Virus genome (UHGV): UHGV-0305822 | DNA: 64,000 nt | Direction: 5' to 3' (one strand) | Origin: a virus | Part shown: one piece after another, positions 2,820 through 49,447 of the stretch | Layout of the letters: the number at the start of each line of letters is the position of its first letter | How positions within the stretch are numbered: position 1 is the first letter of the stretch | Notes under the pieces: generated by a model | Seen by the model: the letters and a program-made list of their open reading frames with translations, nothing else | The model's database searches: none | Told to the model about the DNA's origin: nothing | Translations under genes and position numbers: made by a program

Positions 2820-3410
2820 ATGGCCGAACGTTGGACTAAAGAAGGTATTATTGCTTCGAAAACAGATTTAGAAGGTGGGTACGTGAACGACCCCGACGAT
2901 AAAGGTGGGGAAACCTGTCACGGCGTAACACTAACAACTGCACGCGAATACGGGTATAAAGGGAGAATGAAGGATCTGACCCGTGCGCAGGCGTTTGATA
3001 TTTACGATCGCGGTTGGTGGAAGAAACTTAAACTCGATGAGATTTTAGCTATTTCACCCTTACTCGCAGACCGGATGTTTGATTTTGCTATTAACTCTGG
3101 CCGCGTTAACTGTGTGAAATCGTTACAACGTATTCTGAACGTTTTAAATAACGAAGGGAAACTTTACGCAGATATTGACACCGACGGCGGTATGGGACCT
3201 AAAACGCTAGGTGCCCTGAATGCTTATCTGAATTACCGTAAAGACGAGGGGTTAGGCATCTTAATCTTTGCCTTAATCTCACACCAGGTAACTTACTACA
3301 CAGAAATCTCCGAAAAGCGTAAGAAGAATGAAAAATTCGCTTACGGTTGGTATGCACGTGTGTTCAGGGAAATGCCGGATTATGTAGTGAAGGCGGGGTT
3401 AGTAAAATGA
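2820..3410 (+). CDS. GH108-type lysozyme with putative peptidoglycan-binding domain (endolysin-like)
   Basis: Motif EGGYVNDPDDKGGETCHGVT matches the GH108 signature (EGGY.NDP.D.GG.T..G); C-terminal region resembles PG_binding_3-type domain; RBS AAAGAGGAG. Confidence 0.7.
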   Translation: MAERWTKEGIIASKTDLEGGYVNDPDDKGGETCHGVTLTTAREYGYKGRMKDLTRAQAFDIYDRGWWKKLKLDEILAISPLLADRMFDFAINSGRVNCVKSLQRILNVLNNEGKLYADIDTDGGMGPKTLGALNAYLNYRKDEGLGILIFALISHQVTYYTEISEKRKKNEKFAYGWYARVFREMPDYVVKAGLVK

Positions 3411-3511
3411 ACTGGTTTGCTAAACTCTTAGCGTTATTGTGGAAAGCGTTAACGTCTGGGCGGAAACGTAAAGACGAAAAGCGTGGATACGAATTTTTCT
3501 GGTTTCTATAA
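3407..3511 (+). CDS. small ORF (34 aa, amphipathic/basic), start overlaps lysozyme stop (ATGA)
   Basis: MNWFAKLLALLWKALTSGRKRKDEKRGYEFFWFL; not in ORF track (short); ATGA overlap suggests translational coupling; function unknown. Confidence 0.25.
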   Translation: MNWFAKLLALLWKALTSGRKRKDEKRGYEFFWFL

Positions 3512-3526
3512 GGGAAGGTGTGGGTA

Positions 3527-4192
3527 ATGGAGAAGCTTCAATATAAACGTTTAGACAATAAGTGGTTTGTATTAACGGAGGATTACCATTATCCGTTTAC
3601 GTTACGTGAGATATATCACGACCACGTACACTTAGACCGTGCGGTTTATTTAACGGGTGTATTGCCTGACACACAATTGTGGTTAACGGCACCGAAAGGG
3701 TTCGTTACCGATTTAGCGTCAATTCCTGAACACCTCCAGGGAATTTTCCATCCTGACGGGCCGTGGGCACCTGCGGCCTGCATTCACGACCTACTCTATC
3801 AAAAATGCAGTACGGAACGGAGCTATCCCATGACACCGGGTGGTAACGTTTCGCGTTTTATCGATAAAGAGTTTTCTGACTTAACGTTCCTGCGTATTAT
3901 GCAGTCGTTGGAAATCTCGCCTTATATCTGCCAAACATTTTATAAGGCCGTCGTTGAATTCGGCTGGGATGCCTACGTAGATCCTAATGCAAAGCCATCC
4001 TACAACACTAACGCGTTTCGTACGTTAGATTATAATCGAAACTATTTATTCGTTCGCGAGTTTAAGGAACCTGCAATACCTGACCACGAACGTATTGATA
4101 TCACCACAGATCAGCCCGTTAATGTCAAATACCTGAACATTAAACGTGCTTTTCTGTCTGGGAGGGAAGATGTTTCATCCAAATCCGAGTAA
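3527..4192 (+). CDS. DUF1353-like protein
   Basis: Motif GFVTDLASIP ... AACIHDLLYQ resembles DUF1353 (G..TDGASIP ... HD.LY); ATG at 3527 after GGGAAGGTG (ORF track start 3518 is GTG). Confidence 0.5.
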   Translation: MEKLQYKRLDNKWFVLTEDYHYPFTLREIYHDHVHLDRAVYLTGVLPDTQLWLTAPKGFVTDLASIPEHLQGIFHPDGPWAPAACIHDLLYQKCSTERSYPMTPGGNVSRFIDKEFSDLTFLRIMQSLEISPYICQTFYKAVVEFGWDAYVDPNAKPSYNTNAFRTLDYNRNYLFVREFKEPAIPDHERIDITTDQPVNVKYLNIKRAFLSGREDVSSKSE

Positions 4193-4685
4193 CTTTAAAC
4201 TCAAAGAGTTAGTACCACAGTCTTATATTGCCAAATACGGCGATTCTGCAATTCGGTTTATGAATCCGTTGTTAATGATTTCGCTACAACAGATTCGTAA
4301 CCGTTTCGGTAGAATGGTCATTAACTCAACTACCGCACAACAACGTGGCCTAAGAACCTTAGACTTCTTTATCAATCAAGAAAAGCCTAAAGGCGGTAAC
4401 TATAAACAACGTGCTTTACAACTCTACTCTGATTCAGGAAGTCAACACAAATTCGGTAATGCGATTGACGCAACGTTGTTGGACAGTACCGTAAAGCAGG
4501 TTCACGACTACATCGCCGCTAACCCTGATGAGTTTCCGTTCATTCACTTTATTGAATGCGACATCAGTTGGTTACACATCGACGTTCGTAACCAACCTAA
4601 CATTACTTTCTGGTCACCAAATCGAGGTACTGTGAAAGTGGTTAAGCAAAAACCAATCGATTGGAGCGCCTTAGTCGAGATTTAA
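4170..4685 (+). CDS. peptidase M15-like (zinc D,D- or L-Ala-D-Glu peptidase fold) candidate
   Basis: SQHKFGNAIDA (S.H..G.A.D) and WLHIDV (W.H.D) resemble M15 metal-binding motifs; ATG at 4170 after GGGAGGGAAG; overlaps upstream gene by 23 nt. Confidence 0.45.
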   Translation: MFHPNPSNFKLKELVPQSYIAKYGDSAIRFMNPLLMISLQQIRNRFGRMVINSTTAQQRGLRTLDFFINQEKPKGGNYKQRALQLYSDSGSQHKFGNAIDATLLDSTVKQVHDYIAANPDEFPFIHFIECDISWLHIDVRNQPNITFWSPNRGTVKVVKQKPIDWSALVEI

Positions 4686-4770
4686 CTATTTCTAAGGTGT
4701 TTATACCTTATTTTGTATAAAGACGCTTAGAATGCGTTCTACGCACGATTTGGCGGTTAAAATGAATATA

Positions 4771-4805
4771 CCCTACTCCTTAACGGGAGTAGGGTAGTTT
4801 TTATT
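4771..4805. terminator. bidirectional terminator hairpin between convergent genes
   Basis: Stem CCCTACTCC / GGAGTAGGG, loop TTAACG, followed by TAGTTTTTATT; same stem recurs at 45813 and 46429. Confidence 0.6.
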
Positions 4806-5283
4806 ATTCCGCAGGATGGAGCATTGTTCCGGTGTCAGGAGCTACACCTTCTTTACAGTGGAAGAAAGTAATGCCTTTACCATCACCCGTTTTATATTCT
4901 AAAGTAGAATACGCAAACGTTGGCGTTTTTGAAAGTAACCCATTTACACGGTAGTAACGTTGCCCCGTGATAGGATCGATATTTCCATTAACTTTACCTA
5001 ATAAATCTTTATAAAGTTGGGGTGACTCAATCTTACCATTTGGCCAAGTGGCTACCCAGTTAGCGCCAGTATCGATTACAGTTACTGAACCTAACATTAG
5101 GTTAGTCGAGCTGACGACAGGTTTGTAATTTACAAAATCCTGCTCTACGCCCATACAGGTGTAAATAACCATGTCGTGTGGCTCTACGGGTACAGTTGAG
5201 AATTGGCCATTACTATTCGGTTGTAAAGCACATCCTGCTAATGAAAAAACACCAACCATAGCGATAAGAAAACGTTTTAGCAT
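4804..5283 (-). CDS. predicted lipoprotein (159 aa)
   Basis: N-terminal signal peptide with lipobox LAGC (MLKRFLIAMVGVFSLAGCALQ); convergent to the hydrolase cassette. Confidence 0.6.
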   Translation of the reverse strand: MLKRFLIAMVGVFSLAGCALQPNSNGQFSTVPVEPHDMVIYTCMGVEQDFVNYKPVVSSTNLMLGSVTVIDTGANWVATWPNGKIESPQLYKDLLGKVNGNIDPITGQRYYRVNGLLSKTPTFAYSTLEYKTGDGKGITFFHCKEGVAPDTGTMLHPAE

Positions 5284-5422: not shown

Positions 5423-5968
5423 ATGGCTAAAGCTTTCAATCTGCAGCTCATTGAAGCTGTTAAAGCTAAAAACCCTGAAACTGCTTCTAAACTGACCGTA
5501 AATGATGTCGATTTCGGGGCCGTAGAAGCTTACACCCCGACCGGTAAAAGCGACGCCCGTAACACTAAAGTTGTCCTGACAGCGAAAGAAAGCAGCGCTA
5601 ACTTCACCGGTAATAAAGAATTTCATTATATCCGTCTGGCTTCCGCTAACCTGATTGGTGCCAAAGCTTACCAACAGGAAGGTAGCCTCGACCTGGAAAA
5701 TGACGCTATCGTAACCAAACTCAATCAAGAAATGGTTACTAAAGGTTATGTCGATGACGCGTTCGCTGCAGGTGAACTCACTATTGAGAAAACTAATGGC
5801 GAGAGCGGTGCTAAGGTTTACACTATCAAAGTAAATGCTGGGCACATTAAATTCCTACCAGGTACCATTGCCACCTTCACCTATACCAACCCGGTTCCTC
5901 CGAAGGTAGCTCTGAGCGGCCTGGAAGGTGAACTGGACGGTTTCACCGCACCGTCTCCTAAAGAGTAA
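5423..5968 (+). CDS. hypothetical protein, paralog family member 3 (181 aa)
   Basis: N-terminal similarity to 1420/2282/6034 products; C-terminal GELDGFT motif shared with 6034 product; candidate TATAAT at ~5381. Confidence 0.6.
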   Translation: MAKAFNLQLIEAVKAKNPETASKLTVNDVDFGAVEAYTPTGKSDARNTKVVLTAKESSANFTGNKEFHYIRLASANLIGAKAYQQEGSLDLENDAIVTKLNQEMVTKGYVDDAFAAGELTIEKTNGESGAKVYTIKVNAGHIKFLPGTIATFTYTNPVPPKVALSGLEGELDGFTAPSPKE

Positions 5969-5972
5969 TTAA

Positions 5973-6008
5973 ATCGGGGAGGGGGTAACCTCCCCGATAT
6001 TTCTTTAA
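5973..6008 (+). terminator. rho-independent terminator candidate
   Basis: Stem ATCGGGGAGG / CCTCCCCGAT followed by ATTTCTTT. Confidence 0.55.
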
Positions 6009-6033
6009 CTCGTACTATTAAGGATTTAAGATA

Positions 6034-6564
6034 ATGGCAGCTACTAACCAGATGATGTTGGTCGCGCTTTATAATGCTGCTAACACTGAGCTACCACATC
6101 AGATTACTGATAAAGAAGTGTCCTTTGGTTTGCCTACTGCGCTGGAAGGCGAAGGTAAGAATACCAAAGTTACCATGACTGCACTGCCGGGTTCTGAGAA
6201 TTTCAAAGGCGCAATCGAACTGCATTACGATCGTCTGGAGCCGGGTGTTGTAGGTCGTATTGAACTAACTGACGATCTGTCTCGTTGGGAAGATCAAAAC
6301 GAATTGCGCGCATGGTTACAATATTACATCAATAAAGTTAAACCGGACGATGCTATTCATCCAGCGGACGTTTCTTATTCTACCGAAGACCAGAAAGACG
6401 AACATGAAAACGTCACTCTGCGTACCGTGACGTGCACCGTTACCGAAAAGAACCTCCGTTATAAACCAGGTGTAATGGCAACTTTCGTAATTACGCCGAA
6501 AGTTGTCGATAATCGTATTGACCTGGCCACCACCAACGGTGAGCTGGACGGCTTTACGTCCTAA
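6034..6564 (+). CDS. hypothetical protein, paralog family member 4 (176 aa)
   Basis: N-terminal similarity to 5423 product; C-terminal GELDGFTS. Confidence 0.6.
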   Translation: MAATNQMMLVALYNAANTELPHQITDKEVSFGLPTALEGEGKNTKVTMTALPGSENFKGAIELHYDRLEPGVVGRIELTDDLSRWEDQNELRAWLQYYINKVKPDDAIHPADVSYSTEDQKDEHENVTLRTVTCTVTEKNLRYKPGVMATFVITPKVVDNRIDLATTNGELDGFTS

Positions 6565-6633: not shown

Positions 6634-7305
6634 TTACAGCCCTTGCTCTAACGCAAACGCTTTAATTGAATCGTAATCACGTGCTTCAGCCCAAGCCCTG
6701 ACTTCTCTTTTCTGCTCAGACATTGCGTGGTGTAGTCTTTGATCGCGCTCAACGATTGCTGCCAGCAACGTCTTGCACTGTTCTAACGTAAACGGTTCGA
6801 TACGGGTGTTGTTAGCCGTTAACCAATACGCTGGCGCAGTTTCTGACTGAATATAACGACTCAGTGCTACCTGTGACTTCTCATCTGCCTGGAAAGTGAA
6901 ATCACCTACCTGAATCTCAGCATAGCGTGCATCTTGATAACGGAATTCCAAAGCGCTTAGAATTTTCTGAACATCGGTAAAGATGTACCGCACCGTGGAA
7001 CGTAAACCTGTACGAATTTCTTCCAGGTCAATCCCCAACGTGTCGTTAACAAAGTCTTTCGCTTTCTGTAGCGTAAACCGTGCTTCGATTTCAGACATGT
7101 CGTAGTTACGCATTTGTTCCAATGCTTCGCGATCAGACATCCCATCAATCAACTTATAATGCAGTAACGCACAAAACCCTGTACGGCCGTGATCTTCGCT
7201 ACCGATTTTCTCCATGTAGTTACCATGACGGTCAATCGGTAAATCGTGCGCAAAATAACGGCGACGGATTTCTTCTTTCGTTAAGCCTTCACCAGTAGCA
7301 GACAT
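6634..7305 (-). CDS. hypothetical protein (223 aa), last gene of radical-SAM operon
   Basis: Long ORF, start overlaps upstream gene by 25 nt (translational coupling); no confident motif. Confidence 0.5.
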   Translation of the reverse strand: MSATGEGLTKEEIRRRYFAHDLPIDRHGNYMEKIGSEDHGRTGFCALLHYKLIDGMSDREALEQMRNYDMSEIEARFTLQKAKDFVNDTLGIDLEEIRTGLRSTVRYIFTDVQKILSALEFRYQDARYAEIQVGDFTFQADEKSQVALSRYIQSETAPAYWLTANNTRIEPFTLEQCKTLLAAIVERDQRLHHAMSEQKREVRAWAEARDYDSIKAFALEQGL

Positions 7306-7853
7306 TCATCGTCTCCTTTAATCAACCCTAATTCGATTAACAGTTCAAAATCGATATGACGGAATCTTGTGTCGAAGTCCGATTCCCAATCGATACGGAT
7401 ACCCTGGCATTCTTCTGGCGTTAGCTCAGGAAAAATCACGCTATTAAATTTCTCCCGCTCATCGTAAAACCCATCAATCGGTGAGTTCGGGTTACGTGTT
7501 GCGAAGATAGTAATGCCGGGGAAGGACAATGCCAACACAGTGATAGATTCTGCGCTGGGTTCGCTTAAAGAGCGGCGTAGAAACGCAATTTTGTGACGTG
7601 GGAAATCCAATACCCGTTCTTCAAACCCTGGGTTACGTTTTTCAATTTCCGCAACCGACAGGTCAGTAAGTTCGGTGCAGTACATTGGGATGATTACAGT
7701 CACGCCGTGACGAATCAGTAAGCGTTTTACGTCATCGGTGAAATCTTCACCGTTAATCACCACATAACAACCGAATAGCTTACTGTTTTCCAGAAACTTA
7801 TCCAGAAGTCGAATTCTACGCTTCGTAATATTGTTGATCAGAATTGGTTTCAT
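7281..7853 (-). CDS. hypothetical protein (190 aa)
   Basis: Long ORF overlapping both neighbours (7281-7305 and 7816-7853) on same strand. Confidence 0.5.
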   Translation of the reverse strand: MKPILINNITKRRIRLLDKFLENSKLFGCYVVINGEDFTDDVKRLLIRHGVTVIIPMYCTELTDLSVAEIEKRNPGFEERVLDFPRHKIAFLRRSLSEPSAESITVLALSFPGITIFATRNPNSPIDGFYDEREKFNSVIFPELTPEECQGIRIDWESDFDTRFRHIDFELLIELGLIKGDDECLLLVKA

Positions 7854-9138
7854 CTTTGGCTTCTCTTAATAATTTTTCCTTTTGGGCACGTTCACGAACA
7901 CAGCGTGGGCAATAACACATGCTCGTGTCGTGGAACGCTTTTGCTGACGTCGTACCCATCTTCTGTTTCCAGTATTCCGCCACCATCAGTTTCGCTGTCG
8001 TCCAGCCACACTGACGTCGTTCAGCGTGATACGCCTTACGGTCTTCTAACGTCCCTTCCCCGTTCTCGTAAGAAGCCGCTGCGCAGCTACCACAAGCGTG
8101 TTTCATCGGACAACCTAAACAGGTCTCTGGGTAGTTGGTATATTGCGTTTGAATCTCTTCTAACAATTTACCGTTGTCCAGACTGACGAATTCCCGACCT
8201 ACCAACTCAAACACCGCAGAACGCGACGTTACCGTTGACATAAAGCGGTTACAGCCAAAGATCTTACGGTCAAATCCTAAGCACGTCATGTGCGTTAACG
8301 TCCCACAAAACGGACGTAAACGTTCTGGGTTCAGCCGTACGGTGTCATTATACAGTAACTGGTCACGCCAGTTCGGTTCCCAAATCGTATCGAAATCCAA
8401 CCCTTCTGGAATGATGTGCGATAAGATATTACGTGGGTTGGTGTGTAATCCTTTCTCAACCCAGTAATCTATCACATCCATCATCTGTAACGCGATTGAC
8501 GTCGCCATGCTACGTGGCATAACGTCTTCGAAAGTTACGTTTCCAGAAATTGTCCCACCGCCAGTAATGTCAATTAATGACTTCATCCCCGCAGCATAGA
8601 ACGGCAGCGTTTCTAACGTAAAGGTTGCTTTTACGCCGAGCTCTGCAATGCCAACCTCTTTTAAGTAGTTATAGCCACGTACTGCGGCTTCGTAAGAACC
8701 CTGGCGTGTTGTTGTGAAGATACGATAACGGTCATGGGATTCAGGTAAGCCATCAATCGAAACCCCAACCGAAAGTTTATCTTTCCAACGTTCTACAATC
8801 TCACGGTTCAACGGACGATCTAACAGCGTTCCGTTCGTGGAGATACTAAACATAAACGGTCGGTTGTGTTCTTTACACAACTGCTCAGCGGTTTCAAACG
8901 CAGCCAGCAGCAGTTTAGGCTGCATGAACGGCTCACCACCGATAATGTCGATAATAACTTCAACATTCGGTTCGTTTTTATCACGTTCAAAACAGGCGTG
9001 TAAGAAATCAACAATATCCGCCGCTTTGTTGTTACGCGGGTACTTACGTTCGTAACAATATTCGCAGTCCAAGTTACACGAAAGGTTGGTTACGATCTGA
9101 TACGTTAACTGCTTAGGGAATTCATTTACTTGACTCAT
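7816..9138 (-). CDS. radical SAM enzyme with SPASM-type C-terminal Cys cluster (peptide/protein-modifying maturase candidate)
   Basis: N-terminal CNLDCEYC (Cx3Cx2C radical SAM 4Fe-4S motif); GGEPF SAM-binding-like motif; C-terminal FCG...C...C and CLGCPMKHACGSC clusters typical of SPASM auxiliary Fe-S domains. Confidence 0.8.
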   Translation of the reverse strand: MSQVNEFPKQLTYQIVTNLSCNLDCEYCYERKYPRNNKAADIVDFLHACFERDKNEPNVEVIIDIIGGEPFMQPKLLLAAFETAEQLCKEHNRPFMFSISTNGTLLDRPLNREIVERWKDKLSVGVSIDGLPESHDRYRIFTTTRQGSYEAAVRGYNYLKEVGIAELGVKATFTLETLPFYAAGMKSLIDITGGGTISGNVTFEDVMPRSMATSIALQMMDVIDYWVEKGLHTNPRNILSHIIPEGLDFDTIWEPNWRDQLLYNDTVRLNPERLRPFCGTLTHMTCLGFDRKIFGCNRFMSTVTSRSAVFELVGREFVSLDNGKLLEEIQTQYTNYPETCLGCPMKHACGSCAAASYENGEGTLEDRKAYHAERRQCGWTTAKLMVAEYWKQKMGTTSAKAFHDTSMCYCPRCVRERAQKEKLLREAKDETNSDQQYYEA

Positions 9139-35293: not shown

Positions 35294-35686
35294 GTGAAAA
35301 TGAATATCAGAACTATACTTTATACCATCATTATTTTCTGTGCGGTCGGAATTACTGGCACTTATGCTTTCGGTGATTCGGATGTCCGCTATTACGAACC
35401 GGCTCCTGACTCACCGATTATCAACCCGGATGAGACGCCTACGTTAATGCGCAGTTTCGGTAAACTACAAGTTTATCGTTTAGTGCGTGGTGAAACGTGT
35501 ACGGGATTACTCATTGCTGACACCCGTGCACAAGTCTACCAACGTCTGACGGATATCGCCTGCGAACAACCAAAGGTAATGTCGGTTAGCATCCATCCGC
35601 TATCAGTTGGTAACTATACCGCTGTGGACTTCTTTCACAACGCCGAATTAATCGGACGCGTTACCTTAAATCGTCCTGCCGAATAA
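35294..35686 (+). CDS. secreted/membrane-anchored protein, 130 aa
   Basis: Hydrophobic N-terminus ILYTIIIFCAVGITGTYA; start may be ATG at 35300. Confidence 0.5.
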   Translation: MKMNIRTILYTIIIFCAVGITGTYAFGDSDVRYYEPAPDSPIINPDETPTLMRSFGKLQVYRLVRGETCTGLLIADTRAQVYQRLTDIACEQPKVMSVSIHPLSVGNYTAVDFFHNAELIGRVTLNRPAE

Positions 35687-35704
35687 TCTAAAGGAGTAGT
35701 TACA

Positions 35705-36190
35705 ATGAAACGTTTACACACTCTGATGTTCTTTCTGGTTTTCTTGTTTATCGGTGTCACACCAAGTGTAGATGCGGCCTCCGTAGACGAATTGCTTACC
35801 TGTGATGGAAACGCTTGGGAAGGTCAGCCAAATGCGTGCCCAAACATCAACGACTTGTACGATACCGATAAGTCGTTTAAAGCCGTTGTTGATAAAACAT
35901 TAGACCCTGTGGGACTGGATGGTATGTTCGGCTCTAAAGGTTACATGGATGGCCCTGGCGGTAACATGTATCCGGTAAACATCAACAACAAAATCTGGAT
36001 TGAAAGTGGCGGTTGTAAAGCTAACGCTTGTGGTTGGGAATACATCGTAACGCTATACAACCCACACACCAAGAAACTCGTCGGTTATTACTACAACATC
36101 GACCCCGGTTATCTGATCTGGTTCGGTGATATCGGTGTTGCCGAATTCGCTTACCTGGTTAAGAAATACGTAGAACAATCTAAATACTAA
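35705..36190 (+). CDS. secreted Ivy-like protein (inhibitor-of-vertebrate-lysozyme fold candidate)
   Basis: Signal peptide MKRLHTLMFFLVFLFIGVTPSVDA; segment ESGGCKANACGWEYIVTLY...YYNIDPG parallels the Ivy CKPHDC loop region (SACKPHDCGSQRIAVMW...FSTIDEK) recalled from E. coli Ivy, but with N in place of the key His. Confidence 0.4.
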   Translation: MKRLHTLMFFLVFLFIGVTPSVDAASVDELLTCDGNAWEGQPNACPNINDLYDTDKSFKAVVDKTLDPVGLDGMFGSKGYMDGPGGNMYPVNINNKIWIESGGCKANACGWEYIVTLYNPHTKKLVGYYYNIDPGYLIWFGDIGVAEFAYLVKKYVEQSKY

Positions 36191-36201
36191 GGACTTTTAT
36201 C

Positions 36202-36612
36202 ATGAAAACTATCATCAATACTCTTCTCATTGCAATGGCTGTTCTGTTCTCTGTCAACGCTACAGCAAAAACAATACAGTTGCCAGACAATATTAAGTAC
36301 GTCAATAGCACCGATGATTTCTATTGTACGGAAATTGACGGCTTGTACTGCCAGGCGAAGAGTCTGTTTAAATACAAAGGTAGCAGATACGTATTCATCG
36401 TTGAGCAGGGTGGTGCCTGGTGTTACGACAGCCCAATGTCCGTACTCAACCTCGAAACGTGGAAGGCCCAACGTCTCGAATACAACGACAAACGTCTGTG
36501 CTCTGGTAATAACAAACCATTCTTCGAAGTCGTAGATGGTGTGCCAATGGTAGGGATATTAGACACTTCGGAAAAACCTATCGTTGTAGCTATGGATAAA
36601 CTTAAAATTTAA
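36202..36612 (+). CDS. secreted protein (signal peptide), 136 aa, 4 Cys
   Basis: MKTIINTLLIAMAVLFSVNATA signal-like N-terminus. Confidence 0.55.
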   Translation: MKTIINTLLIAMAVLFSVNATAKTIQLPDNIKYVNSTDDFYCTEIDGLYCQAKSLFKYKGSRYVFIVEQGGAWCYDSPMSVLNLETWKAQRLEYNDKRLCSGNNKPFFEVVDGVPMVGILDTSEKPIVVAMDKLKI

Positions 36613-36622
36613 GGAGTAACTC

Positions 36623-37012
36623 ATGCGTCTCGTCTGCGTTTTAGCATTCTTCTTCTCCCTGAGTGTAGCAGCATCTACTCAAGTTAACGATTTACTGCTA
36701 ACCCCAAACAACAATACCGATTACCAGTACAATCCTCCGGGGTTTGAAGTTTGTGAAGTCGGTGAAACAATCTGCCAAGAAGTCGGCGCAGACGGGCGCT
36801 ATATTCTGGTAAAAGCTGATGGTGGCACAATGTGTCCCGCAGGTTATTACTTTCTGCTCGATTCCGTCGCAAGAGAGGTTCTTCCTATCACCACGAAAAC
36901 GTGCGACCCTACCGTTGTCTTAACTCTCGCTAAAAGCAAATCTCGCGACCGTTACCTGATCGTTATCGAAGAACGGGGCAAGATGGCTGGTGCTATCGAA
37001 TTAGATCATTGA
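36623..37012 (+). CDS. secreted protein (signal peptide), 129 aa, 4 Cys
   Basis: MRLVCVLAFFFSLSVAAS signal-like N-terminus; RBS AAGGAG. Confidence 0.55.
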   Translation: MRLVCVLAFFFSLSVAASTQVNDLLLTPNNNTDYQYNPPGFEVCEVGETICQEVGADGRYILVKADGGTMCPAGYYFLLDSVAREVLPITTKTCDPTVVLTLAKSKSRDRYLIVIEERGKMAGAIELDH

Positions 37013-38298: not shown

Positions 38299-40803
38299 AT
38301 GCTAAAAGTTGAACGCATTATACTCAAAGGTTTTACGGGGATGGGGTTACATGAAATTGAAACCTTCGATTTCACTATCCAGTCTCCAACAACAATTATC
38401 CTGGGTGGGAACGGCTGCGGGAAAACCAGTCTACTGTCTGTGTTCTTACCCTTAGCACCGGCTAAAACCGAATTTAGGGACGGCGGTTCTTACACAAACT
38501 ACTGTTTAGTTGGCGATCAACGCTATCGATTCAAAGTTGCCCGTAAAGGCAACTCTTTGGTTTGTGATATTGAGAACTTGACCACGGGGACAAAGATCGT
38601 CGAGCAAGGTAATGCGAAAGTCTACAACTCCCGTGTTGAAGAAATCACGGGTATTACGAAAGAGATTAAAGAACTATTAAATGGTGAGGTGTTGTTAACC
38701 GATGCGGGAACCGAATTACGCCGCAAATGGTTTTACCGTTTAAGTACCTCTGACCTCACTTACGCGTTAGGGTTTTATCAGCGTTTACGTAAAAACCTTA
38801 CTGCCTTAAATGGGGGTATTGAAATCACCAGCCGCAAGATCGCCGAATTACGGACGCGTGTTATTGAGAACGAGGAAGAACGGCAGCAGTTAGCGACGAG
38901 ATTAAAAGGTTTGGAATCGGATTTACGTGAACTGAACCGAGAAATCGAACAGTTGCCAGGATTAAATCGTGCCGTCACCATCGAAACAATCCAAGCGTTA
39001 TTAAACAGCTTGGGCCCAACCATCGACGCAATATTACAACATCGTGGTGGCCTGCCTACTGATGAACAGATACTGACCGCGCGACAAAACGAAGCTACGG
39101 CCCGCGAAGCTGTCGTGTCTACTGAAACAGAGGTATCGATGTTGAATAAAGACTTGTCGTTATTAATGGATGAGTCGACACGACAAGACTACCTGATGCG
39201 GAATCACGAAGGTCTCAAGAATACGCTGGCACGTTTACGTGAGTTACTTACCAAATGGGACACCGAACATCTCTTTCCGGGTCTATTTAACGACAACATC
39301 AATTTAGACCAACTTCGTGCGGCTACAGATGCGCGTGTTTGGGGGCAACGGTTGGGAACAACACTAGACGCAATTCATTCAACCGAAAAACTTAACGTTT
39401 TGGAAGAACGACTTCTGGTGATGGATCAAAAAACCGCAGGGATGCGGGATAGACTCCAGCGAGTGGAGAACGTTTTACAGAATTTAAATCACGAACGTAA
39501 TCACTACTTAGAAACAGCGGAAGTGGATTGCCCGCAGTGTCGGTTTAAGTTTCGGCCCGGTGTTACGCGTTCTTTACCTGAACTTGAGTCTTCGATTCGC
39601 GGACAACAACAGCAGCGCACGGAACTGCAAACACAGTTAGAGGCCCTATTACGCGATCGTGTTGAATTAGAATCTGATGTAACTTATATGCGGCAGGTTC
39701 GTGAGATTGTACTGACGTATTCAAAGGACCCGGTATTGAGCATGTTCTTTAAGCGTTTGCAAGAACGTAACGTTTTCACAGAATCACGCGAACAGTTCGG
39801 GAGTCTATGCGCAGCGTTTGACAGTGAGTTGTACTCTGCTATTGAGTACCATGAAACCCGACAACGGTTAGTGAAGGCGGAAAAAGAATGGCAGGATGCC
39901 GTAGCGGCCGTTGGTAACGTCGATGGTGCTTTACAACAGAAAATCGCCTTCCAACAGTCACGATTAGGTAAAGCCACAGAAATGCTCTCAATGCGTCGTA
40001 GAGAGCACGAACTGGCTAACACGACACTTACCTATCTGGTGAATGTTAAACGTGCTGTAGATGATTTCAGTGCGTTATTCGAACGGTTAGAGAGTGATGT
40101 TAAGGTTACGTTGACAAATACGGTCGTCGAGGAACTCTTACGTGCACGAGAAGGGAAGCTGGATGCTTTTACAACCGCACGCGAACGTTATCGTCAGATG
40201 GAAAATGAATTGAATCAGCTCAACAGTTTGGAACGCGAACTTGCTGACTTACAAGCCCAGCAGTTCAATAACAAACTGATGATTCAAGCCTTCTCGCCAG
40301 AAAAGGGTGTACTTAGAAAGTATTTTTACAACGCTATCGTTAGAATCACAGAGTTAATGACGCGTTATATCGAACAAGTCTGGACGTACCCCATGCGCGT
40401 TATGCCTTGTGACCTCACTGACGGCGATTTGGATTATACTTTTCCTGTCCAGCTAAAAACGCATCCTGAGCCTGTTCCTGACGTGCGTAAAGGGTCTAAG
40501 GCGCAGCGTGCGATATTTAATCTGATGTTCAGGCTGACCGCGTACAAAGCGCTGAAGTTGCATCAGTTTCCGTTGCTTTTGGATGAGCCTTCGGAAGGCA
40601 TGGATGAGGAGCACCGTAACAACCTGGTCGGCTTTATTAAAACGTTAGCAAACTCGGGAGAATTTTCTCAACTGTTGGTAGTCTCCCACGAAGCCGAGGT
40701 TCATTCTAAACTTAATGAAGCATCGTACTGTGTCATCGAACCGGAAGGGGTGACATTGCCTGCGGTGTATAACGAAGGAGTAAAAATTGTTTATGCAAAC
40801 TGA
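38299..40803 (+). CDS. Rad50/SbcC-like ABC-type ATPase with zinc hook
   Basis: Walker A GGNGCGKTS near N-terminus; long coiled-coil-like middle with central CPQC (zinc-hook-like); C-terminal LLLDEPSEGMD Walker B/D-loop; ATG at 38299 after GGAGGTGGG (ORF track start 38224). Confidence 0.7.
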   Translation: MLKVERIILKGFTGMGLHEIETFDFTIQSPTTIILGGNGCGKTSLLSVFLPLAPAKTEFRDGGSYTNYCLVGDQRYRFKVARKGNSLVCDIENLTTGTKIVEQGNAKVYNSRVEEITGITKEIKELLNGEVLLTDAGTELRRKWFYRLSTSDLTYALGFYQRLRKNLTALNGGIEITSRKIAELRTRVIENEEERQQLATRLKGLESDLRELNREIEQLPGLNRAVTIETIQALLNSLGPTIDAILQHRGGLPTDEQILTARQNEATAREAVVSTETEVSMLNKDLSLLMDESTRQDYLMRNHEGLKNTLARLRELLTKWDTEHLFPGLFNDNINLDQLRAATDARVWGQRLGTTLDAIHSTEKLNVLEERLLVMDQKTAGMRDRLQRVENVLQNLNHERNHYLETAEVDCPQCRFKFRPGVTRSLPELESSIRGQQQQRTELQTQLEALLRDRVELESDVTYMRQVREIVLTYSKDPVLSMFFKRLQERNVFTESREQFGSLCAAFDSELYSAIEYHETRQRLVKAEKEWQDAVAAVGNVDGALQQKIAFQQSRLGKATEMLSMRRREHELANTTLTYLVNVKRAVDDFSALFERLESDVKVTLTNTVVEELLRAREGKLDAFTTARERYRQMENELNQLNSLERELADLQAQQFNNKLMIQAFSPEKGVLRKYFYNAIVRITELMTRYIEQVWTYPMRVMPCDLTDGDLDYTFPVQLKTHPEPVPDVRKGSKAQRAIFNLMFRLTAYKALKLHQFPLLLDEPSEGMDEEHRNNLVGFIKTLANSGEFSQLLVVSHEAEVHSKLNEASYCVIEPEGVTLPAVYNEGVKIVYAN

Positions 40804-40972
40804 TTGGTTCCGTCGTATTGTGGATGCGGCAGGGTTTGGCTTCATGTCCATTCTAGCGGTTCTTTATGTCATGTTTTGTGTGGTGATGATTTTATGGGTA
40901 GTTTCATCTTATCTGATTAAACTATCGTGGGGTTCAATTTGGCGTCAACGCGAATGCGAATGGCGGAATTAG
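40793..40972 (+). CDS. small membrane protein (59 aa)
   Basis: Hydrophobic stretch FGFMSILAVLYVMFCVVMILWVVSSYLI; ATG at 40793 overlapping upstream stop. Confidence 0.4.
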   Translation: MQTDWFRRIVDAAGFGFMSILAVLYVMFCVVMILWVVSSYLIKLSWGSIWRQRECEWRN

Positions 40973-40982
40973 GAGAGGGAAT

Positions 40983-41081
40983 ATGGTTGTAGGGGTTCTG
41001 TTAACACTTGGCTCGTTGTGGTTAATTGGTAAAGGTTTAAACTGGCTGATTAAACGTCACCGTTGGGCGTTCGAAGATTAA
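40983..41081 (+). CDS. small hydrophobic peptide (32 aa)
   Basis: MVVGVLLTLGSLWLIGKGLNWLIKRHRWAFED, AGGAGAGGGA RBS; not in ORF track (short). Confidence 0.3.
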   Translation: MVVGVLLTLGSLWLIGKGLNWLIKRHRWAFED

Positions 41082-41138
41082 CCACCCAAATAATCCAGAA
41101 GATACCCTCCGGTGTGAGGGTATTGACAGGAGCAGAAA

Positions 41139-41267
41139 ATGACCACGATAAACGCTACGAATGTAGCGATATCCGCACTATACGACGCGGAACTTTCATG
41201 GGGTGGATTAATGATCACCACAGCCATATTAGCCGCTGCGGCTTTCGTCATCGCGCGTTGGTTTTAA
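41139..41267 (+). CDS. small hydrophobic peptide (42 aa)
   Basis: MTTINATNVAISALYDAELSWGGLMITTAILAAAAFVIARWF, AGGAG RBS 6 nt upstream; not in ORF track (short). Confidence 0.3.
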   Translation: MTTINATNVAISALYDAELSWGGLMITTAILAAAAFVIARWF

Positions 41268-42964: not shown

Positions 42965-43064
42965 ATATTATCATTAGGGCACACAACAAAGGAGTATTAG
43001 CTGTCCGCGCCGTCATTTCGTCTTACGGAATACGGAAATGTATAAATCCAACTGGAGAAACAAA

Positions 43065-43763
43065 ATGTTTCGTATCTTCTTTCTTTTACTGGTAACACTT
43101 TTCGCGTTTAACGCACAGGCGTCAACGTCAACGCCACATTCTAAGCATCAGCGTGAGTTTGCACAAATCCAACATCGGTTCGAAAAAGTCAGCCCGTTAA
43201 TTGTGGAAATCTCACGAAAGCAGGGCGTTGATCCCAAGCTGATGATTACGCTGATTTATCGTGAATCGCGTTTTGATCCCAAGGCTTACAACAAAAGCTC
43301 ACGAGCGCACAGCCTGGTACAAATGCTTCCAAGTACCAAGCGTAATCTGCTAAAGCTTTATGGAAAAGAATTAGGTCTTAGTCAGAACGCCGATTTGTAT
43401 AATCCGCGTAACGCTGTTTTGCTGGCTACCGCGTATGTTAAACATCTTGAGAAGGGGTTAACCAAACGACTCAAACGCAAGCCCACCATGGCTGAAATTG
43501 CGTTAGCTTACCACTGGGGTGAAAGTGGCGCTCACACGCGAATCAAAAGCAAATCTCGAGCAGCACAACGAGAAATGGCAGGCTTTATGAAAGACGCCGC
43601 GTTCTATAGCGCGAAAATCGATGTGCCTGTTGTTGTGGGCTCGGCCCCACGTCAGCTTGCGTTTGCGAAGAAAACACCACGTCAGATTCAACTGGCGGAA
43701 GTTAGTAGAATTTGGGATACGATAAACATGAGTTTTCCAATCAATAGAGGAGTTACCCTTTGA
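43065..43763 (+). CDS. secreted lytic transglycosylase (SLT domain) candidate
   Basis: Signal peptide MFRIFFLLLVTLFAFNAQA; YRESRFDPKAYNKSSRAHSLVQMLPST resembles the SLT catalytic ES ... G(L)MQ(L/I)(M)P motif; ATG at 43065 after GGAGAA. Confidence 0.55.
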   Translation: MFRIFFLLLVTLFAFNAQASTSTPHSKHQREFAQIQHRFEKVSPLIVEISRKQGVDPKLMITLIYRESRFDPKAYNKSSRAHSLVQMLPSTKRNLLKLYGKELGLSQNADLYNPRNAVLLATAYVKHLEKGLTKRLKRKPTMAEIALAYHWGESGAHTRIKSKSRAAQREMAGFMKDAAFYSAKIDVPVVVGSAPRQLAFAKKTPRQIQLAEVSRIWDTINMSFPINRGVTL

Positions 43764-44335: not shown

Positions 44336-44815
44336 ATGATAAAATTCATTTGGCGTTATCCAACGCGTTTTTGGTTTGTGGTACTTGAACTGTGTATGGT
44401 TCTTGTAGCGGTTACTTTTGTCGAAGCACCCGCCTCGCAGTTGGCCATTTTCTGCCTTTTCGTGACTGTCCCTGTATGGGTGATTGCGAAGGTTATTAAG
44501 TTCGTCATGGTGTGTTGGGCGAATTATACCTGTCCGTATAAGCCTAAACAAATCATGAAATGGCTGATGTATATTGAAGAACGTTTACCGGCGCAACATA
44601 AATTACTGGGCTGGTCGTCAATGTTGGATATTGCGCTAGAAACCAATGCAAAGTTCCCCGGTGCGAAAAACCCGTATTTGTTGATGGCGGTAATTGTTGC
44701 ACAACAAAAACTGGCAGGTGACCGTTGGTTGCCAGAAGAAGCGAAAGCGTATATCCGTAAACATCCAAAAGCTTTTTACTCGGTAGGACAATGGCGTAAC
44801 TTGCCTTTATTTTAA
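44336..44815 (+). CDS. membrane protein (159 aa)
   Basis: Two hydrophobic segments (FWFVVLELCMVLVAVTFV; LAIFCLFVTVPVWVIAKVI); RBS AAAGGAG. Confidence 0.55.
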   Translation: MIKFIWRYPTRFWFVVLELCMVLVAVTFVEAPASQLAIFCLFVTVPVWVIAKVIKFVMVCWANYTCPYKPKQIMKWLMYIEERLPAQHKLLGWSSMLDIALETNAKFPGAKNPYLLMAVIVAQQKLAGDRWLPEEAKAYIRKHPKAFYSVGQWRNLPLF

Positions 44816-48484: not shown

Positions 48485-48988
48485 ATGGGTTCATTTTTTA
48501 AAGTGCTTCCGTTCTTCCTTCAGATGTTAATGGAAGCATTTAAACCAGGAGAAGGAGAAAACGTATCAAGAGCAAGCAAGATAATGACTTTAATCATCAC
48601 GATCTTGTTGTCGTATTCTGGCTTCGTCTCCTACGCCTATGTACAACAGTTTCACGCGCTCGTTGCAGTGCAGTCTCATGACACTTATATGTCGCAGTCT
48701 TACCAAGAGATGAAACAAGATCGAGATAAACTAAAAGAAGATAATGGGAAGTTATACGACAGGCTCTTCGTTTGCCTCGGCCAGAAACCGCCATATGAAA
48801 GCACGTTTAATTCATCGAAAGCGAGCGGTACGGCGAAGGATCTGTCTTCGACAAAACCAGAAACTCCTGTTAATCCAGCTTCAACACCAGAACAACGTAA
48901 AGAGGCTTCGGCGAGACCTGTTGGCAATTTAAATGCGAACAGCTTTCGACAGGAGATCATAAAGACGCTAACGTCTTCTAAGGAGTGA
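48485..48988 (+). CDS. membrane-anchored protein (167 aa)
   Basis: Internal hydrophobic segment IMTLIITILLSYSGFVSYAYV; charged/low-complexity C-terminus. Confidence 0.5.
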   Translation: MGSFFKVLPFFLQMLMEAFKPGEGENVSRASKIMTLIITILLSYSGFVSYAYVQQFHALVAVQSHDTYMSQSYQEMKQDRDKLKEDNGKLYDRLFVCLGQKPPYESTFNSSKASGTAKDLSSTKPETPVNPASTPEQRKEASARPVGNLNANSFRQEIIKTLTSSKE

Positions 48989-48991
48989 TTG

Positions 48992-49447
48992 ATGAAAATG
49001 CTGTTATTCATCATGATGGTGTTCGTGGGGTTGGTGAGTAATAGCTACGGCGACGAAGTTAAACGTCCAGCTTATAGGCCACTGGAACTTCCTCCTACAC
49101 CGCCAATAATGGTGAATTGGAAAATTGACAATAACGCAATGCGTGAGTATGTTGCGGACGTCAACACCTATGCTTACTACGTTTATGTCTACACCCGAAA
49201 TTTAAACCAACAAGCCGTTAAACGTGGCTGGAGCCCACCAATGCTGGCTCCACTTTGTGAGCGTTATGAGTTACCGAAGTTACATGTTGTACCCGAACGC
49301 TTATCTCTTGACGAAAGCTCTTTAACGCCCCAGGAGATTAGCCGTGACCTATCGCGTAAACTCAATAATTTGTTGTGGAATTACCGTTCCGACCGTCAGA
49401 CACTACTCGATTCGTACAACCAATACTTGACATCGTGTTTGTACTGA
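48992..49447 (+). CDS. secreted protein (signal peptide), 151 aa
   Basis: MKMLLFIMMVFVGLVSNSYG signal-like N-terminus without lipobox Cys; ATG at 48992. Confidence 0.5.
   Translation: MKMLLFIMMVFVGLVSNSYGDEVKRPAYRPLELPPTPPIMVNWKIDNNAMREYVADVNTYAYYVYVYTRNLNQQAVKRGWSPPMLAPLCERYELPKLHVVPERLSLDESSLTPQEISRDLSRKLNNLLWNYRSDRQTLLDSYNQYLTSCLY

Follow-up and report, generated by a model that had tools for sequence, protein, structure and literature searches.

A TtaP-type phospholipase A2-like protein in a candidate lysis operon of an SPN3US-like jumbo phage

A 64,000-nucleotide stretch of the UHGV virus genome UHGV-0305822 (the window, to which all positions refer) contains four tightly packed plus-strand genes at 2820–4685, lying between hairpins at 2763–2783 and 4769–4796 and met by a convergent lipoprotein gene. 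The first gene (2820–3410, +) encodes a 196-residue N-acetylmuramidase with GH108 and PG_binding_3 domains and begins at ATG 2820 behind a ribosome-binding site (RBS; AAAGAGGAG), downstream of the 2763–2783 hairpin. Its TGA stop codon and the ATG of the second open reading frame (ORF; 3407–3511, +) overlap as ATGA, and the product of this ORF is a 34-residue cationic amphipathic peptide, MNWFAKLLALLWKALTSGRKRKDEKRGYEFFWFL, considered below as a disruptin-like candidate. After a gap of 15 nt follows the gene for a 221-residue DUF1353 protein (3527–4192, +), a relative of the phospholipase A2 (PLA2) TtaP; a start at ATG 3527, behind a GGGAAGG RBS, is more plausible than one at GTG 3518. The fourth gene (4170–4685, +), with its likely start at ATG 4170 (MFHPN...), overlaps the DUF1353 stop by 23 nt and encodes a 171-residue protein that we assign to divergent M15/LAS-type zinc peptidases. 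The lipoprotein gene (4804–5283, −) encodes 159 residues of predicted outer-membrane type. The upstream hairpin, G+C-rich and followed by a T-run, lies after the preceding DUF7941 gene and marks the upstream operon boundary, and the downstream one, with a 12-bp stem, would be a bidirectional terminator common to the operon and the lipoprotein gene; both are terminator-like on both strands. All four operon products are without a signal sequence. A scan for sigma-70 promoters returned fewer sites than in shuffled sequence; the phage has RNA polymerases of its own, which makes such a scan uninformative.

The window belongs to a distant relative of the jumbo phage SPN3US: in parts of the region about 70% of the nucleotides are identical, a relationship seen only by blastn and tblastn, as megablast against phages gave no match. 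The proteins are 60–78% identical to their SPN3US-like counterparts, and contigs of 221–225 kb nearly identical to the window phage occur in several metagenome assemblies. The SPN3US orthologs of the muramidase, DUF1353 protein, M15-like protein and lipoprotein are gp156, gp157, gp158 and gp159, respectively, and their order and orientation are as in the window, including the small ORF over the muramidase stop and the convergent lipoprotein; equivalent loci are carried by Erwinia phages Asesino, Wellington, and CR5. In RefSeq, gp156–gp159 are labelled endolysin, tail assembly chaperone, hypothetical and hypothetical, functions that are predicted only. Paralogous DUF7941 genes flank the cassette on both sides (1420–2758 and 5423–6564), and their SPN3US counterparts are head proteins, gp138–155 and gp160 having been detected in tailless particles.

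The identity of the muramidase is unambiguous from its sequence. Pfam Glyco_hydro_108 (PF05838) was matched at E 1e-23 (84.1 bits; gathering cutoff 21.2) and, in the C-terminal part, PG_binding_3 (PF09374) at E 1.6e-16 (60.7 bits; gathering cutoff 24.6), together with PHROG 315 'endolysin' (2.3e-43) and, below its cutoff, the NCBIfam model 'holin-associated N-acetylmuramidase' (8e-20). An EGGY motif, which we take to be the N-terminal catalytic motif of GH108, is found at residues 18–21 (...DLEGGYVNDPDDKGGET...). Homologs are present in 729 phage records, placing the protein in a very common endolysin type, with muramidase activity predicted accordingly.

The fourth gene product is more divergent. 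Searched alone, it gave no Pfam match at E <= 0.1 nor at E <= 1, and as a single sequence against the PDB it returned noise only. It matches PHROG 894 'endolysin' at 1.3e-28, and among its homologs 15 of 24 match Peptidase_M15_3 (PF08291; best 6.8e-8) and 11 of 24 match Peptidase_M15_4 (PF13539). The family invariants R62, H93-x6-D100, E129, and H136-x-D138 reproduce the Hx6D ... HxD pattern and conserved upstream Arg of M15/LAS endolysins of the VanX-type fold, and the family profile gave a weak VanX alignment in the PDB on the SxHxxGxAxD zinc motif; a further match of this profile, to A32, was spurious. The window protein differs from M15/LAS endolysins in that it lies below Pfam detection itself, only its relatives reaching M15 models, and its insert of about 30 residues (residues 64–92) is shared with part of the family and absent from shorter members. 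In 39–48 kb Vibrio phages the family is labelled endolysin. We accept this ORF, at the level of sequence, as encoding a divergent LAS/M15 peptidase.

A preliminary description of the window, whose ORFs were all confirmed at or close to the positions given, had remarked on a 34-residue amphipathic peptide overlapping the lysozyme stop. The peptide is real: both it and the ATGA overlap are conserved in SPN3US and in Asesino, where it is annotated as gp172, with the pattern NWF..L......AL....RRKR, and Wellington carries a different small hydrophobic peptide in this slot. Across the family (window, SPN3US, Asesino) net charges range from +5 to +7 and hydrophobic moments over 18 residues from 0.45 to 0.60, the window peptide having +5 and 0.45. 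It was rejected as a holin, there being no transmembrane (TM) segment (no 19-residue window reaches a Kyte–Doolittle value of 1.6); its hydrophobic stretch is broken by two Lys. A −1 frameshift fusing it to the C-terminus of the muramidase was also considered, and no slippery site is apparent. The peptide falls within a published screen for disruptin candidates (<80 residues, net charge at least +4), is predicted to form an amphipathic helix, and has a start codon that overlaps the endolysin stop, which makes it a disruptin-like candidate by resemblance rather than a demonstrated member of the class. The disruptin gp28 of phage phiKT (Holt et al., bioRxiv 10.1101/515445) is likewise small, strongly cationic, predicted amphipathic helical and encoded beside the endolysin, and neither protein has a TM domain (TMD) or signal sequence; they differ in length (34 versus 56 residues), the likeness being one of properties, with sequence similarity not established, and the window clade also has a spanin-like pair. 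In SPN3US, about 290 bp with extra small ORFs separate the peptide from DUF1353, compared with the 15 nt in the window. A second conserved small ORF (…DSGFFKLLRAIF.RRV…) lies in this interval in SPN3US (locus L001, 5110–5351) and Asesino (locus L002, 4613–4741), and SPN3US also has there a 30-residue ORF with a TM-like stretch.

The DUF1353 protein brings a different kind of enzyme into the cassette. It matches Pfam PF07087 at E 1.2e-14 (54.1 bits; gathering cutoff 22.5). The GH108 and DUF1353-like motifs noted in the preliminary description were thus borne out by Pfam scores above the gathering cutoffs, whereas its M15-like assignment failed as a single-sequence Pfam search and holds at the family level. 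TtaP, the 125-residue DUF1353 protein of the typhoid-toxin islet, was found experimentally to be a PLA2 with catalytic residues H70, D71, and D85, its hydrolysis of phospholipid at the sn-2 position being abolished by mutation of the catalytic Asp, and it is distant kin of the group XIV secreted PLA2s SvPLA2 (1LWB) and TbSP1 (4AUP) (Gartly et al. 2024, PMC11525133). The window protein is 37% identical to TtaP, with H87, D88, and D118 in register with H70, D71, and D85, and these three residues are invariant in an alignment of 42 diverse DUF1353 proteins. In hhalign, three motif blocks were in register and H87, D88, and D118 fell on H64, D65, and D85 of SvPLA2; the SvPLA2 sequence used was identical to the PDB entries 1FAZ/1LWB at 122/122 residues. 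The structural comparisons also supply the first points against our interpretation: the hhalign link is remote, with a probability of only 28%, Foldseek gave no match, and the DUF1353 profile found no match among PDB sequences. The fold link alone would be weak support for a PLA2 reading, which we draw from membership in the DUF1353 family, intact catalytic residues and the characterized founder TtaP. On these grounds the protein is a TtaP-type PLA2-like protein with predicted enzymatic activity. Compared with TtaP, the phage protein has a C-terminal extension of about 70 residues (about residues 150–221), specific to its clade, and an insert between H87 and D118; compared with the group XIII/XIV secreted enzymes (Streptomyces SvPLA2, 1LWB/1FAZ; Tuber borchii TbSP1, 4AUP), it is without signal peptide or disulfides and has extra N- and C-terminal beta elements. 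As DUF1353 is a PLA2 family, the cassette would target membrane lipid as well as wall.

Databases give this protein another name. It matches PHROG 1158 'tail assembly chaperone' at E 8.9e-59, and in some phages the gene follows the tail-fiber genes, so that one could regard it as a non-enzymatic assembly or structural factor. Tail assembly chaperones are encoded between the tail-tube and tape-measure genes and are needed for tail assembly. The neighbors of DUF1353 in the window and in SPN3US are instead the muramidase and head-protein paralogs, and we found no experimental basis for the 'tail assembly' label, which traces to automatic annotation only. The position after tail-fiber genes is also a site of lysis cassettes, and there an endolysin and a holin flank DUF1353. 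Together with the catalytic H-D...D triad invariant among the 42 sequences, the active PLA2 founding the family, and the fact that the ortholog gp157 is not a virion protein of SPN3US, this makes a purely structural role extremely unlikely. The label 'tail assembly chaperone' or 'tail assembly-like', found on about a hundred phage records, is probably wrong and is likely to have arisen because lysis genes usually follow the tail-fiber genes.

Examination of DUF1353 genes in unrelated phages revealed recurrent placement in lysis cassettes. In the largest cluster of an IMG/VR sample (38 of 80 loci) the order is tail fiber, endolysin (phrog_465), a 121-residue ORF, DUF1353, and holin (phrog_199), and in Fusobacterium phage FNU_1P it is an L-Ala-D-Glu peptidase (M15) endolysin, three small ORFs, DUF1353, and holin. 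In three metagenomic loci DUF1353 comes last in a string of genes for holin-like TM proteins, a muramidase (GH108 in L008 and L011, PF11860 in L013), and further small proteins, the last of them a lipoprotein. Among SPN3US-like phages DUF1353 stays constant while the wall hydrolase beside it varies: Asesino and Wellington have GH108, CR5 has M15, and SPN3US and the window have both. Several records of the SPFM Salmonella phages (P0061–P0065 and P0144–P0148) match the DUF1353 and M15-like proteins at high identity but only in fragments, covering 12–17%, which suggests frameshifts or sequencing errors in those records.

Because the domains are identified, their catalytic motifs are intact, the genes form an operon syntenic with SPN3US gp156–gp159, and DUF1353 is repeatedly found in lysis cassettes, we interpret 2820–4685 as a late envelope-demolition (lysis) operon of an SPN3US-like jumbo phage, to which we give a probability of roughly 0.6. 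In the proposed mechanism, one transcript between the two hairpin terminators would yield four soluble products without signal sequences. The GH108 muramidase would cut glycan strands and the M15/LAS zinc peptidase peptide stems or cross-links; the translationally coupled peptide would insert into and perturb membranes in the manner of a disruptin, and the DUF1353 PLA2 would hydrolyze glycerophospholipid to lysophospholipid and fatty acid. After a breach of the inner membrane, muramidase and peptidase would dissolve the sacculus, while lipase and peptide would weaken membranes, most plausibly the outer membrane, at its inner leaflet of phospholipid, and possibly the inner membrane as well. Lipolytic enzymes have a precedent in lysis cassettes: mycobacteriophage LysB deals with the outer lipid layer. 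LysB differs from the putative lipase of the window in being a serine esterase or cutinase that acts on mycolyl-arabinogalactan, its fold and substrate being unrelated.

Beyond the structural results, several observations weigh against an assignment to lysis, and alternative explanations draw on many of them. Deletion of ttaP in Salmonella Typhi gave no envelope or secretion phenotype (PMC11525133). DUF1353 is sited away from lysins in phages PhiPA3, Arash (where it is labelled 'structural protein'), and pVa-21, its chromosomal copies are not phage-linked, and a recognizable wall hydrolase lies within 3 kb in only about 7 of 20 dereplicated viral clusters; an early impression from seven contexts, that DUF1353 almost always adjoins a muramidase, was tempered by the sample of 80 loci. 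In the Salmonella phage Arash the homolog (gp82c; locus L018, 3426–3764) is situated among tRNA genes, and should its label derive from proteomics, association with virions is possible for some DUF1353 proteins. One alternative is that the GH108 muramidase is the sole lysis enzyme and that the peptide, DUF1353, M15-like and lipoprotein genes are accessory, 'moron'-type genes, unrelated or dispensable. Besides the silent ttaP deletion and the non-lysis contexts of DUF1353, this explanation can point to the absence of the M15-like gene from Asesino and Wellington and of GH108 from the CR5 locus. We nevertheless consider it rather unlikely, given the tight translational coupling across all four genes, the retention of DUF1353 together with one or more wall hydrolases in all the SPN3US-like layouts examined, its recurrence between endolysin and holin in unrelated phages, and catalytic residues whose invariance implies selection for activity.

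The surroundings of the cassette raise the question of entry, since it is embedded in a block of head-protein paralog genes. The wall hydrolases and phospholipase might be carried by the tail as virion-borne entry factors, comparable to the PLA2 domain of parvovirus VP1 or to tail lysozymes, an idea to which the database labels 'tail assembly-like protein' and, in Arash, 'structural protein' lend some color. Published mass spectrometry of SPN3US virions also reported gp158 at trace level, with none in tailless particles. The same data listed gp138–155 and gp160, and gp156, gp157, and gp159 were absent, even though the detected proteins numbered 80 or more and about 5 spectra were enough for some of them. 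Moreover, gp158 was later judged to be non-specifically associated with virions, the 'tail assembly' label has no supporting experiment that we could find, and the flanking structural genes encode head rather than tail proteins. A role in entry is therefore very unlikely. The preliminary description had left the choice between lysis and entry undecided for two hydrolases of different specificity; the two hydrolases stand, with different bond specificities predicted (muramidase and M15-type), and lysis is favored over entry because gp156, gp157, and gp159 are missing from SPN3US virions and DUF1353 has a lysis context elsewhere.

A second function for such proteins is known from the typhoid-toxin islet, in which TtsA mediates toxin release without gross lysis (PMC11525133). 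One IMG/VR locus in our sample, L106 (IMGVR_UViG_2872663256_000004), is a typhoid-toxin islet, with CdtB-, PltA-, and TtsA-like neighbors and a 125-residue DUF1353 protein carrying H70, D71, and D85; the complete islet (CdtB, TtaP, TtsA-like, PltA, and PltB-like genes) is catalogued there as a viral contig, and a gene for a 173-residue lipoprotein (…LSSILCGC…) adjoins it. The window muramidase is 46% identical over 172 residues to the TtsA-like muramidase of this locus, which also has the EGGY motif. Both TtsA and TtaP thus have counterparts in the window, and the window and islet versions are all without a signal peptide. In the islet, however, the two genes function in toxin release and lie among those for the toxin subunits, each on a different strand, whereas here they would be co-transcribed with a peptide and a peptidase. 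The homology, together with the non-lytic action of TtsA, would fit a controlled remodeling of wall and membrane during infection, for instance to let some product out or to change the envelope, without lysis and with the lipoprotein as an exclusion or immunity factor, the terminal steps being left to the secreted transglycosylase and the spanin-like pair described below. We regard this as quite improbable: GH108/PG_binding_3 proteins are the standard annotated endolysins of hundreds of phages, DUF1353 stands beside holins in small phages with a single lysis cassette, and nothing evident in the phage points to a cargo or to secretion.

Passage across the inner membrane presents a difficulty for a lysis operon. 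Neither the cassette, as the preliminary description had noted, nor annotation-type searches of the window, nor the whole SPN3US reference annotation yielded a recognizable holin, which leaves the four signal-less proteins with no evident route across the inner membrane to the envelope. Given the lack of a recognizable holin, the lipase might itself open the inner membrane from the cytoplasmic side. Nothing was labelled or recognizable as a spanin in the window by the same searches or in the complete SPN3US annotation. An annotation-independent scan, however, revealed two adjacent genes 44 kb from the muramidase. The first (48485–48988, +) encodes an i-spanin-like protein (phrog_8719) with a TMD at residues 30–48, a charged helical region, one conserved Cys, and a Pro-rich tail; the second (48992–49447, +) encodes an o-spanin-like partner of about 150 residues with a signal peptide. 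The partner has a canonical lipobox in five of six clade members (SPN3US, pEa_SNUABM_6, Asesino, Wellington, and EarlPhillipIV), the window phage alone being without the cysteine, and this variant is real, the exact protein being encoded on contigs of about 224 kb from several independent assemblies. The pair is unannotated in all relatives. As in lambda Rz/Rz1, a protein with an N-terminal TMD is immediately followed by a secreted partner, with a conserved Cys in both members; unlike Rz/Rz1, the window pair matches no PHROG, Pfam, or NCBIfam spanin model, and its partner is long and lacks the lipobox cysteine. By sequence architecture, we consider 48485–49447 a spanin-like two-component pair. 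The preliminary description had pointed to a canonical holin/spanin set elsewhere as something that could account for lysis; a conserved spanin-like pair does exist, but its partner is without a lipobox here. Conservation of this pair in the clade is a further point against our interpretation, as the need for a lipase in the outer-membrane step is then not obvious. With the lipid anchor of its spanin-like partner lost, the window phage might rely on the lipase and the cationic peptide for that step.

The convergent 159-residue protein encoded at 4804–5283, reported earlier as containing a lipobox, has the lipobox LAGC with Ala at +2, conserved across its family; the +2 Ala predicts sorting to the outer membrane. 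Two further cysteines, C43 and C143, are invariant, and a small beta-barrel is predicted with moderate confidence. Searched exhaustively with a profile, the protein has only 13 relatives, all of them lacking a Pfam domain. The protein was considered and rejected as a spanin, its gene being convergent and isolated, with no TMD partner and no C-terminal TMD in the protein; its possible roles include those of an envelope partner, an inhibitor or an exclusion factor. Four metagenomic phages unrelated to one another likewise have a lipobox protein gene directly before DUF1353, in many cases with an overlap (L007, 3602–4051; L008, 4624–5004; L011, 4610–4993; L013, 4647–4991). Three of these lipoproteins are weakly similar to one another, and a test for homology to the window lipoprotein gave no signal; they may be o-spanins or dedicated partners.

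Several other genes in the window encode predicted envelope proteins. A 241-residue SLT lytic transglycosylase (43038–43763; Pfam 8.8e-15), whose SPN3US homolog is labelled 'transglycosylase', has a cleavable-looking Sec-type signal peptide (…AFNAQA|S) and would be a third peptidoglycan-cleaving enzyme, its predicted export being independent of a holin. Two genes downstream, a 159-residue protein (44336–44815; phrog_20030) with two strong TM segments at residues 12–30 and 36–54 is a holin-like candidate. Three very small ORFs at 40787–41267 (61, 32, and 42 residues) have one strong hydrophobic segment each, with a weak PHROG match only for the first. At 35294–37012, four consecutive proteins of 129–161 residues, each with an N-terminal signal peptide, form a block of predicted secreted proteins; three match the partly paralogous PHROG families 9424, 8968, and 5248, and the fourth has no PHROG match. 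Beside the cassette, a DUF4376-type gene, a small gene, and a radical-SAM gene (6634–9138, −) are the same neighbors as in SPN3US, Asesino, and Wellington, and in CR5 the radical-SAM gene block directly abuts DUF1353.

The gene set examined here was already present in public genomes and the PLA2 activity of DUF1353 has been published; in the literature available for searching, no paper was found to propose that phospholipases of the DUF1353 type act in phage lysis, and this connection appears to be new. We tentatively suggest, as a possibility that we hold to be somewhat doubtful, that DUF1353 PLA2s are widespread phage lysis effectors that breach membranes alongside or instead of spanins and disruptins, and that TtsA and TtaP of the islet are a domesticated fragment of a lysis cassette. 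If so, there would be a testable origin and function for TtaP, the sole gene of the typhoid-toxin islet without a known role, at a time when the agent that perturbs the outer membrane in TtsA-dependent toxin release is still to be identified. The amber-mutant genetic system of SPN3US makes the lysis idea directly testable. If it is true, lysis by phages of Gram-negative bacteria would include enzymatic attack on membrane lipid, and not only on peptidoglycan, and lipolysis would join spanins and disruptins as a third means of accomplishing the membrane step, helping to explain jumbo phages without annotated holins or spanins.

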